Shown here: positions 22,638 through 26,357 of the stretch, piece by piece
Layout: each line of letters starts with the position of its first letter
Numbering within the stretch: position 1 is the stretch's first letter
From: a virus
Length of the DNA: 37,426 nucleotides
Virus genome (UHGV): UHGV-0281131
Strand: one strand, 5' to 3'
Position numbers and translations under genes: made by a program
The notes under the pieces: model-generated
Seen by the model: the letters and a program-made list of their open reading frames with translations, nothing else
What the model was told of the DNA's origin: nothing
Databases searched by the model: none

Positions 22638-23672
22638 TCATTCTGCTGGAATATCTCTCTTGTATTTAAATATTAATATTCCCTCTGGGTCTAATAATTC
22701 TGTTGCGTTTGAAATTTCAACGTCTAAATACCAAGCTTTTTTCCAAGAAACGTGTTCTATTATTGGGTTTACACTAGCTTTTTTATCATCTAGTCCTATA
22801 CATTGTTCAACCATCATAATAATATAACCTGTTGTTTCTGAACCTGTTGGATAGAATACTTCATCAAATGTAAATAACTCTTCAACATTAGCTCCTAATA
22901 AAATGTCTATTGTTTCTCCTGTTTGATTAGGAGTGTTTCCGTTTATAGTTACCCAATCTTTATTTGTAAACTTTTCTTCATCATCTAGCTCAACACTTGC
23001 ATCTTCTCCGATAATCATACATCTTAAACGCTTACCATTTTTAGAAAGTTTCTTTAATTTCTTTGCTGCTCTTCTAAACTCTTTTAAGTTATATGGGTCA
23101 GAGAAAAGTTTTGTTTCATCTCCAAATTTATTAGCTTCTGGAATTGTTAAATCTGTTTCTACTCCAGCACTATTTTTTACAGTTCTTTTTCCTTCGGTTG
23201 CAATTTTATATAATAGTTGAGATATTCTTTTATCTTTACCATTATAAATTGCGTCTACTTGCATTTCTTGAATAGCAGATTCTTCATTTAATTGAGATTT
23301 GTCAAACTCTGTATTCTCTATCCATAAAGGAACTTCCATACCTGTTGGTATTACCATTACAGATTTAATAAGTTTTCCTGCAGTAACTCCTTTTACATCA
23401 TCAAAATTTTTGTTTGTTTGATTTTCAGTGCTAACTCTATCACGAGCCGTTAATCTTCCTCCAACATAGAATAAAGAATAAGCAGCATTAGTAGATACAG
23501 ATTTAGCAAAATATCTTTCTACTGATGGTTTTGCGTCTGGTTTTCCTACTGCTCTTATAACATTGTTGACATATTTTGCTTGTTCTCCCTCTGTTAAATT
23601 TACGTTAGGTGTTCCAGCAAATAGTTGGATATTAAATCCTGTGCTTCCTAGTAAAGTTTTTTCATTTCTCAA
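22638..23672 (-). CDS. Major capsid protein (344 aa; TTG start), N-terminal FNIQLFAG motif
   Basis: Follows the portal and scaffold, is followed by a strong terminator, and is the size of T7-like capsid proteins. SD AAGGAGG sits 5 nt before the TTG start. The N-terminal motif is shared with the scaffold. Confidence 0.55.
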   Translation of the reverse strand: MRNEKTLLGSTGFNIQLFAGTPNVNLTEGEQAKYVNNVIRAVGKPDAKPSVERYFAKSVSTNAAYSLFYVGGRLTARDRVSTENQTNKNFDDVKGVTAGKLIKSVMVIPTGMEVPLWIENTEFDKSQLNEESAIQEMQVDAIYNGKDKRISQLLYKIATEGKRTVKNSAGVETDLTIPEANKFGDETKLFSDPYNLKEFRRAAKKLKKLSKNGKRLRCMIIGEDASVELDDEEKFTNKDWVTINGNTPNQTGETIDILLGANVEELFTFDEVFYPTGSETTGYIIMMVEQCIGLDDKKASVNPIIEHVSWKKAWYLDVEISNATELLDPEGILIFKYKRDIPAE

Positions 23673-23690
23673 GTATTCCTCCTTAAAATT

Positions 23691-24383
23691 TTAGTTTATA
23701 AAATCCCAAAAGTATGGGTCTGTTTCTTTTTTGCTTCTTGCATAAGTTTTCAATGAATCCATTAATCTATTATCATTTGTGTCTTTAGCTTTATTGTAAG
23801 CCTCTATAAACTCCTCTCTAGTATACATTTGTCCTGTTGGTGCTCCAACTCCTACTACACTTCCTGTACTTCCTGCTTTCATTTCTATGTATTCCTTTAG
23901 GATTTGAGCTCCTATTGCATTTTCTGCCATAGCTCTATATACTATCTGTCTATCTGTGTCTTTTTCTGCTCCTATGAAGTTATTTATTGCTTCCATACTT
24001 GCATTAAGTTCTGGAGTGAAAGCTGCTTTTTGTTCTGCTAGATAAGCTTTTCTATCATCTAGTCTTGATTTAATGTACTCTGGAGTGTAACCTTTTTCTT
24101 GAGCCTCTGTGATATATGGTGTTATATCTCCAATCTCTTGGTAATCTTCTGCCTTTATTCCTTCCCAAGTTAATGGCTCTACTTTAGGTTCTGCCCCTGC
24201 TCCATTATCTCCACTTGGTTGTGGTGGTTCTCCTCCAGCTCCTGTATTTATTGTTGGCTCTGGATTTGGTGTAGGTTCTCCTCCTGTATCTCCTCCCTCT
24301 GCTCCTCCAAATAATTGGATATTAAATTTAAATCTTTCTTTATCAGTCATTTTCTTCTTTTGCCTCCTTTGTAAATATCTCAA
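23691..24383 (-). CDS. Scaffolding protein (probable true start ATG at 24350: MTDKERFKFNIQLFGG...)
   Basis: Acidic, Gly/Pro-rich N-terminal region and a helical C-terminal half. Sits between portal and capsid. AAAGGAGG lies upstream of the internal ATG; the track start is a TTG. Confidence 0.5.
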   Translation of the reverse strand: MRYLQRRQKKKMTDKERFKFNIQLFGGAEGGDTGGEPTPNPEPTINTGAGGEPPQPSGDNGAGAEPKVEPLTWEGIKAEDYQEIGDITPYITEAQEKGYTPEYIKSRLDDRKAYLAEQKAAFTPELNASMEAINNFIGAEKDTDRQIVYRAMAENAIGAQILKEYIEMKAGSTGSVVGVGAPTGQMYTREEFIEAYNKAKDTNDNRLMDSLKTYARSKKETDPYFWDFIN

Positions 24384-24564
24384 TATATAAACTGTTTGCT
24401 CCTGTTATCTCCTTTACTTTACCTGTTGTATCAACTCCTTTTTCATTCATAATAGATACTTTGTTATGTTCAAGTATTAGATATAACTCAAACAATCTTT
24501 TTAAAGCTCTATCATCTCTATATCTTCTCTTTAGGGTTTCAAATTCTTTTACATCTTCTGTCAT
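24343..24564 (-). CDS. Hypothetical small head-module protein (73 aa)
   Basis: ORF between the portal and scaffold genes. ATGA overlap with the portal stop. Confidence 0.3.
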   Translation of the reverse strand: MTEDVKEFETLKRRYRDDRALKRLFELYLILEHNKVSIMNEKGVDTTGKVKEITGANSLYIEIFTKEAKEEND

Positions 24565-26072
24565 TGCTCTATCATTCCCCCTTGTTGTTGTGCAGCTATC
24601 ATAGCATTCATTTCCTCAACTTGCTTTTCTGTTTCCTCTCCAGATTTCCACTCTTTGTTATTGATTCTAAACCTTTTTTGTTGAGCGTCTATATACTCTG
24701 CTTGGTTCATATTGGCTGCTGCAACTTGTGGTCCTAGAGTGCTTGCTATATTTTGGAAATACAACATATTTCTTTCGAGGTCGTCTTGGTCTTGAGCAAT
24801 AGTCAAAGCATTGTAGAATCTTATCTTTAATCTTGGATTTTCCTGTAAAGCTTTAATTTTAGATATATCTATAATGCTAATCTTTTGTAAGCATTGAAAA
24901 ACTTTTATAACTATCTCTCTTAAAAGTTCCCTTTGCATTAGAGCATAGGTTGGCTCTATTTGCTTAGCGAACTCTGTTGTTACTAGCTGTGTTGTTGTAG
25001 CAGTAACATTCTTTAGCTGGTCTAAGTTTTGAGCCGTTTCAAATATGTTGATGTAGAATATATCTCTCAAAAGTTCCTTGTACATATCCAGGTTAAAGAA
25101 CTCCATGTTAGCATTCTCTCCCCTATTGAATGGGACTATCTGATTTTGTGTTGGCGACATTCCCATCATAGATATAGCTCCTGGCTCATCTATTCTTGAG
25201 TTCTGAATATATTTAGCCTCTCCATACCCCAGATAACTTGGTCTAGCTTGTTTCTTAGCAATACGTCTGATGTTAGCTTTAACTTCTTTTAGCCCCTCAA
25301 TCTCCATTATCGCTTTAACACAAGGTCCTATACCATATGGACTATCTCCAATACTTTCATATCTTGCAACTATCCACGGATTGTAAGTGTCTATCCTATA
25401 ATCTAAAACGTCTACAAATTCATTTGAAGTAGATACTACATAGTGAAACATTTTAGTTTCTTGGTCGTATATTGTACCTTCCCACAACTCTATCTCATCA
25501 TCTTGTGACATTCTTTGAACCTTTTCAGAGTTATAAGCACTTTCTCCGAAAAGATTAAGAATCTGATGTTTTCTCACTTTACCTGCATTGTAGAATGTAT
25601 CTCCAGGTTGTTTACCTCTTCTTTTAGTGAGGTAAACATTTATATTGGGTACTGGTTGAAATTCCACAGGATTTGCAATTTTACCAGTAAATCTAACTTT
25701 GAATACTGCCGTTCCTATTAGGTAGTCCATAAGAATTACAGCTTTCTCTGTTTCAAAGTTCGAATTTTCTTGAATCTCATCAAATACTATTTCTGTTATG
25801 CGTCTAAAGATAATCTTGTCATCTCTTGATATATCTTCAAACCTTGGTGTTTCTATCCAAGCCCAGATATGATTACTATTAAGTATCATAGCTGATAACT
25901 TGTTAGCTAACTTAGTAGCATATGCTAGTCCTGTACTGTCTACACCATTTAAATTAATTTCTCTTGGTAGAAAATGTGCTCTAGCTTTCAAATACCAAGC
26001 TAGTATTACATTTCTTTCCTGTTGTGCCTCCTGGAATCTACTACGAAATAGATTTTTAATTCTATCTTCCAT
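24561..26072 (-). CDS. Portal (head-to-tail connector) protein
   Basis: 503 aa, the size and position (before scaffold and capsid) of podovirus connector proteins. SD AAGGAG precedes the ATG. Gln-rich C-terminus. Confidence 0.55.
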   Translation of the reverse strand: MEDRIKNLFRSRFQEAQQERNVILAWYLKARAHFLPREINLNGVDSTGLAYATKLANKLSAMILNSNHIWAWIETPRFEDISRDDKIIFRRITEIVFDEIQENSNFETEKAVILMDYLIGTAVFKVRFTGKIANPVEFQPVPNINVYLTKRRGKQPGDTFYNAGKVRKHQILNLFGESAYNSEKVQRMSQDDEIELWEGTIYDQETKMFHYVVSTSNEFVDVLDYRIDTYNPWIVARYESIGDSPYGIGPCVKAIMEIEGLKEVKANIRRIAKKQARPSYLGYGEAKYIQNSRIDEPGAISMMGMSPTQNQIVPFNRGENANMEFFNLDMYKELLRDIFYINIFETAQNLDQLKNVTATTTQLVTTEFAKQIEPTYALMQRELLREIVIKVFQCLQKISIIDISKIKALQENPRLKIRFYNALTIAQDQDDLERNMLYFQNIASTLGPQVAAANMNQAEYIDAQQKRFRINNKEWKSGEETEKQVEEMNAMIAAQQQGGMIEQ

Positions 26073-26081
26073 AGTATCTCC

Positions 26082-26357
26082 TTATCCTATTGTCTGGGTA
26101 CTACTCTTCTTAAGTAGTCCTAGATTACCTTGTCTTAGGCTCTCCTGGAATTGTATTGCGGTGTTTCTTTGCTTGTCTTTTTCGGCTTGCTGCTTTTTAG
26201 CCTCTGCCTCTCGTTGCTTTTTGAGTTCCTCTTCCATTCTCTTTTGCTGCTTTTTAGTACCACTAAAATCAGTAGCTCCTAAAGTAATGGTATCAACAAG
26301 TCCTCCTAATACATTTCCACCACCACCAAACAATTGGATATTTGGTTTAAATTTTAT
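26082..26357 (-). CDS. Small head protein with Prp-like N-terminal motif (…KFKPNIQLFGGGG…); start is non-canonical or TTG
   Basis: The track ORF (26082-26333) starts at the TTG that encodes the Leu of NIQLF. The motif continues in frame upstream, directly after AGGAGG, with no ATG/GTG. Coiled-coil, Lys/Glu-rich body. Confidence 0.4.
   Translation of the reverse strand: MKFKPNIQLFGGGGNVLGGLVDTITLGATDFSGTKKQQKRMEEELKKQREAEAKKQQAEKDKQRNTAIQFQESLRQGNLGLLKKSSTQTIG

Follow-up and report, generated by a model that had tools for sequence, protein, structure and literature searches.

Ribosomal protein L27-like leaders on three head-module proteins of a phage-plasmid suggest processing by the host protease Prp

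The closest described precedent for head proteins trimmed by a protease of the host is Staphylococcus phage 80alpha, whose capsid protein gp47 and scaffolding protein gp46 begin with leaders mimicking the precursor of ribosomal protein L27 (pre-L27). As the initial annotation of the DNA described here had stated, the literature presents both proteins as cut at this L27-like leader by Prp, the host cysteine protease (MEROPS C108). In the literature searched, host-Prp processing of phage proteins is reported for staphylococcal phages only (80alpha, phage 80 and a tail protein of phi13), and an earlier mention elsewhere is possible. Other phages supply the protease themselves: in T4 several head proteins, small internal ones included, share a short N-terminal peptide removed by one protease, gp21, and the capsid of Streptococcus phage Cp-1 is cut by a phage-encoded protease of clan CR, to which Prp also belongs. 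No proteolysis accompanies the maturation of T7-type heads. Here we describe UHGV-0281131, a stretch of 37,426 nucleotides (nt) analysed in full and called the window below, whose sequence is most likely that of a ~37-kb short-tailed, T7/LME-1-like phage-plasmid. Three proteins encoded at positions 22638-26357 of the window carry a pre-L27-like leader, and cleavage by host Prp is the likely explanation and, in our view, the best one.

The head module resembles that of 80alpha in that an HK97-fold capsid protein and a scaffolding protein both carry N-terminal leaders of 13-18 residues, ending in Q-x-F before a small residue, and in that no prohead protease of the phage is found. It differs in its inferred host, which belongs to the diderm Fusobacteriota and not to the Firmicutes; in its T7/LME-1-like short tail with a PF12236 portal, where 80alpha is a siphovirus; in following the L27 of its own surroundings, with NIQLF in place of NLQFF; in having Gly as well as Ala directly after the predicted cut; in the leader on a third, non-homologous small protein; and in belonging to a Rep3/ParA phage-plasmid. 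Cleavage is demonstrated in 80alpha and predicted here. Judged from the T7-type portal, the match of the capsid to that of phage LME-1 and the lack of any match when the capsid was compared with a phage collection by tblastn, the likeness to 80alpha is one of mechanism and points away from shared ancestry. Gly after the cut, the third predicted substrate and the probable non-AUG start codon set this case apart from the known 80alpha/Prp system.

With T7/LME-1-like heads the locus shares the order portal, scaffold, capsid and the T7-type portal family, LME-1, whose morphology is T7-like, being the best structure match for both capsid and portal. In contrast with T7 heads, which undergo no cleavage, capsid and scaffold here bear a predicted cleavage leader, and it is notable that a leader of this type sits on a head type normally without cleavage. 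As in T4, several head proteins share the peptide, small ones included; the protease is phage-encoded in T4 and Cp-1, whereas no such gene was detected here. The related, cultured Fusobacterium nucleatum phage FNU4 has the same gene order (small Gly-rich coiled-coil protein, portal, 79-amino-acid (aa) open reading frame (ORF), scaffold, capsid).

Among the proteins of the window, NIQLF(A/G)G occurs exactly three times, always among the 20 N-terminal residues of a protein of the head module, and its carriers are the capsid protein, the scaffolding protein and a small protein upstream of the portal, all on the minus strand (Table 1). Based on the amino acid composition of the 46 ORFs (10,939 residues), 0.0009 copies of NIQLF(A/G) are expected, and 2000 shuffles yielded one copy in two cases and more than one copy in none. 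The only other match in six frames is NIQLFS at 34185 on the plus strand, outside any ORF. The initial annotation had read FNIQLF(G/A)G in all three proteins; what they have in common is the identical core NIQLF followed by Ala or Gly and then Gly, the third copy having Pro and not Phe at P6 (counting back from P1, the residue before the predicted cut; P1' is the residue after it). Since the three DNA copies use different codons for Leu (cta, tta and ttg) and for P1' (gct, gga and ggt), the motif is kept at the protein level and is not a DNA repeat. When viral contigs were scanned with a degenerate DNA pattern for NIQLFGGGG, mostly near-identical copies and unrelated Gly-rich proteins with the peptide in their interior were recovered. 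A fourth substrate was considered among the tail and internal proteins, namely a 178-aa protein with GLSLFG near its N-terminus, and was rejected because this stretch is not kept in relatives.

Table 1. Coordinates of head-module and related features in the window, with the basis of each assignment
Feature	Positions	Strand	Basis or remark
Major capsid protein gene, 344 aa, HK97 fold	22638..23672	-	PF19821 Phage_capsid_2, PHROG 3437
Capsid leader, 18 codons, MRNEKTLLGSTGFNIQLF	23619..23672	-	Predicted Prp cut between 23619 and 23618, before Ala; AGTPNV follows
Scaffolding protein gene (putative), 219 aa	23691..24350	-	Position and composition
Scaffold leader, 14 codons, MTDKERFKFNIQLF	24309..24350	-	Predicted cut before Gly; GGAEGG follows
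73-aa ORF between portal and scaffold	24343..24564	-	Present in all relatives
Portal protein, T7-type head-to-tail connector	24561..26072	-	PF12236 (E 4e-29), PHROG 332
Small Gly-rich coiled-coil protein, 91 codons from ATA	26082..26357	-	Present in all relatives; weak PHROG 26964 match
Small-protein leader, 10 codons, (ATA)KFKPNIQLF	26328..26357	-	Predicted cut before Gly; most likely start ATA at 26355-26357
GNAT-like protein, 159 aa	26359..26838	-	3 of 10 orthologues match PF13420 Acetyltransf_4, best E 1.7e-5
RepD-like protein, 362 aa, first late-operon gene	27315..28403	-	Fold of AlphaFold2 model
Rep3-type plasmid replication initiator	33991..35148	+	PF01051 and PF21205

The resemblance of this motif to the L27 extension proved stronger than initially stated. 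In a published table the L27 of Fusobacterium nucleatum reads MQFLFNIQLF'AHKK (the apostrophe marking the cut) and that of Staphylococcus aureus MLKLNLQFF'ASKK, next to KLKFNLQFF'ADQS for the 80alpha scaffold and KLKLNLQHF'ASNN for the 80alpha capsid; the extension of Fusobacterium animalis is published as LFNIQLFAHKK. In the protein database the best L27 clusters are MQFLFNIQLFAHKKG and MQFLLNIQLFAHKKG, and Fusobacterium necrophorum L27 is MKFILNIQLFAHKKG, so that the Fusobacterium forms can be written MQFLFNIQLF'AHKKG or MKFILNIQLF'AHKKG. P5-P1 are identical to Fusobacterium L27 in all three window proteins, and P6 is too in capsid and scaffold. The capsid matches exactly over P6-P1', and the scaffold (FKFNIQLF against FLFNIQLF) is identical at seven of the eight positions P8-P1. 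Considering that the L27 of Leptotrichiaceae ends in LNLQLF and that the tabulated Firmicutes also have Leu at P4, the Ile at P4 is typical of Fusobacterium. The general Prp consensus, hydrophobic-(N/D)-(L/I)-Q-(F/L)-F at P6-P1, corresponds to F/P-N-I-Q-L-F in the window. The leaders are short, with 18 (capsid), 14 (scaffold) and 10 (small protein) residues compared with 8-15 in L27 and 13-14 in 80alpha; relative to Fusobacterium bL27, those of capsid and scaffold are longer and that of the small protein has the same 10-residue length. Past the cut the likeness ends, with AHKKG in L27 and AG, GG or GGGG in the phage proteins, which are substrate mimics and not L27 homologues.

The conservation of the leader is clearest in the capsid protein, for which a protein search returned 37 homologues of 43-99% identity, almost all metagenomic. 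Across 36 of these, Gln at P3 and Phe at P1 are present in every sequence, Asn at P5 and Ile at P4 in 34 each, and P1' is Ala in 29 and Gly in seven; P6 is Leu, Phe, Ile or Met and P2 is Leu, Ile or Met. The leader itself varies between 11 and 27 residues and its flanks diverge. In the numbering of the capsid alignment, the invariant residues are Q16 and F18, and conservation reaches at least 90% at N14 and I15. The capsid gene begins at a TTG codon with GGAGG 6 nt 5' of it. In the AlphaFold2 model (predicted local distance difference test score 78), for which the best PDB match is the capsid of Legionella phage LME-1 (9eg4), residues 1-22 are modeled as disordered, as would be expected of an exposed leader. 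No PDB sequence was matched significantly by profiles of the capsid, scaffold, GNAT-like or RepD-like protein.

The 219-aa protein between portal and capsid is taken to be the scaffold on account of this position and its composition, its N-terminal part being rich in Gly, Pro and Glu and its C-terminal part helical and conserved; it has no match in Pfam, PHROG or the PDB. Its start is the ATG at 24348-24350 (Shine-Dalgarno spacing 12 nt) and not the upstream TTG of the listed ORF. When the head modules of the relatives were compared (n = 11), the motif was clear in seven of the 11 aligned scaffold orthologues, in the forms FNIQLF'GG, FNIQLF'AE, FNIQLF'AG, FNIQLF'AA, LNIQIF'AD and LNIQIF'AE.

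The conserved positions of the phage leaders are the same as those read by the S. aureus enzyme. In the published crystal structure of SaPrp with a peptide, P1, P2, P4 and P6 lie in hydrophobic environments, the Gln at P3 is buried with its full set of hydrogen bonds, and P1' is limited in size, a limit that the restriction of P1' to Ala or Gly fits. A Prp substrate with Gly at P1' was not found in the Prp literature searched; being smaller than Ala, Gly should fit the P1' pocket. In F. animalis, prp is reported as a core gene and positive selection as acting on Prp at substrate-contacting sites. The initial annotation had looked to a host prp gene between rplU and rpmA, and this arrangement exists in F. 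necrophorum GCA_022787675.1, where rplU, prp and rpmA stand in a row and Prp (111 aa, PF04327 Peptidase_Prp) has a GHA..DIVCAAAS motif, the host of the element itself being assigned indirectly.

Based on these comparisons, we propose that capsid, scaffold and small protein would each be made with a short, disordered N-terminal leader that mimics host pre-L27 (F-x-F/L-N-I-Q-L-F followed by Ala or Gly). Prp, an essential cysteine protease of the host that normally trims L27 in ribosome assembly, would read P6-P1 and cut after Phe, leaving mature N-termini AGTPNV in the capsid, GGAEGG in the scaffold and GGGGNV in the small protein, and the phage would then need no protease of its own. We favour this explanation because of the identity to the host substrate, the conservation of the positions read by Prp, the 80alpha precedent and the failure to detect a phage protease. 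Cleavage and the ATA start of the third gene are predictions, as are the host and the roles of the scaffold and the small protein.

The part of the proposal that concerns the small protein depends on its start codon. By its position this protein is a putative internal head or portal-associated protein. Its motif had at first been taken as simply lying near the N-terminus; no ATG, GTG or TTG exists between the upstream in-frame stop and the motif, and the placement stands through probable translation from ATA. Gene callers start the protein at the TTG that encodes the Leu of the motif, which would leave the motif untranslated. Judging from the sequence, the ATA is most likely the start, with the N-terminus read as IKFKPNIQLF followed by GGGGNV, and we consider it very likely that the leader is translated. 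The ATA start gives a leader of 10 residues, equal in length to MQFLFNIQLF of L27. In five variants (the window and relatives L010, L014, L021 and L028), the Ile codon at P10 is constant and P9-P6 change (KFKP, NFKI, KIKL) around a fixed NIQLF. The three variable sites in the Asn, Ile and Gln codons are all synonymous third positions (aat/aac, atc/att, caa/cag), a pattern with a chance of 1 in 84 when position alone is considered.

These changes also bear on an alternative that concerns the third protein only, according to which its motif is an untranslated relic: the protein would start at the TTG inside the motif (MFGGGG), the upstream codons would be 5' untranslated region, and only the capsid and scaffold leaders would be functional. 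The choice of the gene callers agrees with this, the 83-aa product would match the leaderless orthologues in length (79-85 aa), and ATA initiates translation very poorly in those bacteria that have been studied. However, the Shine-Dalgarno sequence GGAGG at 26367-26371 is 9 nt 5' of the ATA as opposed to 33 nt from the TTG, and the constant P10 Ile codon and the purely synonymous changes in the N-I-Q codons speak against an untranslated relic. Furthermore, an in-frame ATG is found 5' of the leader in both L010 and L028, where it arose by different sequence changes; in the leaderless orthologue L016 (~7233-7235) an ATA occupies exactly the site of the ATG in L004 and L013; and a second late gene (27315-28403) also apparently starts non-canonically, at ATT. 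We therefore regard the untranslated relic as unlikely. Two further possibilities were rejected. A +1 frameshift from the GNAT-like ORF into the small protein would need a slippery site, and none is present. Stop-codon recoding, raised by two sites where the window has TAG and relatives have TGG, was dismissed because TAG ends 10 of the 46 ORFs and because the GNAT frame that overlaps one of these sites dictates its sequence, the second site falling in a 5' spacer.

The two late genes that seem to start at ATA and ATT are both shortened by standard callers, which hides the leader of the third protein. This leader is present only in the subclade that contains the window; elsewhere the protein starts with Met/Val-Gly where the alignment places the predicted P1'. 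Every orthologue of the small protein finishes with GNLG(L/M)L..Q(T/I/V)IG, no more than one residue from the stop codon and just 5' of the portal gene, and FNU4 (L030, 1397-1873) encodes a longer, 158-aa Gly-rich coiled-coil protein at the same position, which suggests a conserved, so far unannotated family of portal-associated or internal proteins.

A second alternative applies to all three proteins. The leader could primarily be an assembly, chaperone or targeting peptide that is uncleaved or only incidentally cleaved, or a decoy that occupies Prp and slows ribosome maturation. The assembly of 80alpha requires an intact scaffold leader, yet it proceeds when scaffold and capsid are not cleaved. 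Capsid and scaffold, as proteins produced in very many copies, could compete with pre-L27. The conserved positions are nevertheless exactly those read by Prp (P6, P4, P3, P2 and P1, with a small P1'). The leaderless orthologues of the small protein, with their start at the aligned P1', suggest that the form without a leader is functional, and leaders are dispensed with in FNU4 and some relatives, which assemble the same type of head. We consider this alternative improbable as the main account, noting that it partly overlaps with cleavage by Prp.

The search for a phage protease bears on the last alternative. Pfam and PHROG scans of all ORFs revealed no protease family except the Peptidase_S74 of a tail fibre, and no ORF matched a prohead protease family (S78, U35, S49/ClpP, U9 or Cp-1/Prp-like) in either database. 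A phmmer search at maximum sensitivity with F. necrophorum Prp against 2757 six-frame segments from the window and ten relatives gave a best E of 0.095. The absence of a ClpP- or S78-type protease from the head module, as first described, was thus borne out by hidden Markov model and phmmer searches of the element; we give it little weight, because T7/LME-1-like heads mature without a protease. It seems very improbable that the leader is recognised by a protease which the phage itself encodes and which escaped recognition, the likeness to L27 being coincidental or secondary. In favour of this alternative, phage-protease systems typically have an N-terminal peptide common to several head proteins, and many ORFs lack annotation, among them the 73-aa ORF and the small ones at 18.4-22.2 kb. 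Yet no ORF or six-frame segment matched a protease or Prp, the mid-sized late-operon proteins of unknown function resemble a GNAT protein (159 aa) and a RepD fold (362 aa), neither a protease, and a match of 7 of 8 residues to the L27 of the inferred host, the genus-typical Ile included, is hardly coincidence.

Several observations weigh against cleavage by host Prp. P1' is Gly in two of the three proteins, compared with Ala in 115 of the 117 best L27 matches. In four relatives the scaffold leader is degenerate, with Asp at P1' (LKVLF'DA, NQIFF'DT, KNIYF'DA and ERILF'DT), and the small protein is leaderless; FNU4, in spite of its identical gene order, has no leaders at all. Leader processing is thus not intrinsic to this head type. 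The translation of the small-protein leader hinges on a rare ATA start. In 80alpha, capsid cleavage can be lost and the one requirement is the scaffold leader itself, so that processing by Prp would not in itself reveal the purpose of the leader. Finally, a 6.6-kb relative (L009, JAHHTN010000092.1) with NIQIF'A leaders on capsid and scaffold is binned in Faecalimonas sp. MAG083, a member of the Firmicutes. This contig, a fragment of a related phage, has a guanine-cytosine (GC) content of 31%. Such a value is low for Faecalimonas, which makes the binning doubtful, and the assignment to a Lachnospiraceae bin is probably an artefact.

The distribution of leaders among the relatives would be compatible with a further reading, which we put forward tentatively and consider rather doubtful. 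The L27 leader may be a portable Prp tag that was gained, lost and moved between head proteins within this phage lineage, and that in one subclade was grafted onto the small protein, with AUA placed so as to give a leader of the 10-residue L27 length.

The host that the leader would have to match is most likely a member of the Fusobacteriaceae, as indicated by the Rep3 protein, the GC content, the type of endolysin and the Ile at P4. The five best tblastn matches of Rep3 in PLSDB all come from Fusobacteriota (34-41% identity, ~80% coverage), among them Cetobacterium somerae, Fusobacterium varium and Fusobacteria bacterium ZRK30. GC is 30% in the element and 29-33% in all relatives. The endolysin is a T5-type L-Ala-D-Glu peptidase whose listed phage homologues are almost entirely from Gram-negative hosts, and the leader carries the Fusobacterium-type Ile at P4. 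The host could not be read directly, because scans of genome contigs with the capsid and with the capsid alignment returned one 6.6-kb contig only and no prophage in an isolate genome.

On the minus strand the head module runs GNAT-like ORF, small protein, portal, 73-aa ORF, scaffold and capsid; together the PF12236 portal, the scaffold between portal and capsid, the HK97-fold capsid and the tail-tube proteins identify this head type. The portal matches the LME-1 portal (9efk) among PDB sequences, and the tail proteins match PHROGs 376 and 394. The 73-aa ORF has no Cys and no family match; its small size and lack of features rule it out as a candidate protease. The GNAT-like protein, so called from weak Pfam matches, has no invariant Cys or His; its gene is in the head module of all relatives, directly 5' of the small protein, and its stop codon ends 1 nt before the ATA and overlaps the leader in L014. 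The 362-aa protein was modeled with a score of 89, and its best PDB matches are RepDE/RepD (4cwc and 4cwe; probability 1.0, TM-scores 0.32-0.44), so that in the model it appears to have the fold of RepD/Rep_trans rolling-circle initiators. It is unusual that such a nickase-like gene adjoins a small-terminase-like gene. This gene appears to start at the non-canonical ATT at 28401-28403, 8 nt past a G-rich Shine-Dalgarno sequence and directly preceded by a TAG (28404-28406). The GTG-GGT-TGG at which callers begin in some relatives reads GTG-GGT-TAG in the window, the TAG also being present in four relatives, and the ORF listing gives only a 225-aa remnant.

Elsewhere in the window, the Rep3 and ParA genes (33991-35917, +) give the element its phage-plasmid look. 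Judging by related contigs of 37.0-37.8 kb, the window appears to be a nearly complete genome; neither a terminal overlap nor tRNA genes were found in it, and megablast of the window against phage and plasmid collections gave no match. A serine resolvase/invertase (17377-18072, -) lies between the head-proximal and the tail genes. An 1842-aa protein (6836-12364, -) and the adjoining 665-aa and 178-aa proteins have no Pfam or PHROG match and are, by position, candidate internal core or ejection proteins of a T7-like virion. Just 3' of the capsid gene, a 130-aa protein (21849-22241, -) matches PF21825 (crAss001_48-related, 'Sequestin'; E 1e-12) and is kept in several relatives. Two collagen-repeat tail-fibre proteins are encoded at 2363-4868 (-), and the C-terminal domain of the second (2363-3475) is a Peptidase_S74 intramolecular chaperone. 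The ~0.7 kb at ~28400-29100, in a block of 24% GC (28001-30000), is the most AT-rich part of the window and contains short ORFs only. It separates divergent regulatory genes from the late operon, and is a candidate promoter, origin or pac region.

Taken all together, if the proposed processing is true, host Prp also serves phages with an unrelated virion architecture, in a diderm phylum to which cancer-associated Fusobacterium belongs. This would suggest that copying the L27 leader is a recurrent, convergent strategy. If Prp is widely used by Fusobacterium phages, this use would be one possible driver of the positive selection on F. animalis Prp. The leader variant (NIQLF, NLQLF or NLQFF) could predict the host of uncultured and metagenomic phages from sequence alone. 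Antibiotics that inhibit Prp would also affect phage maturation, a caution for programmes that develop them.

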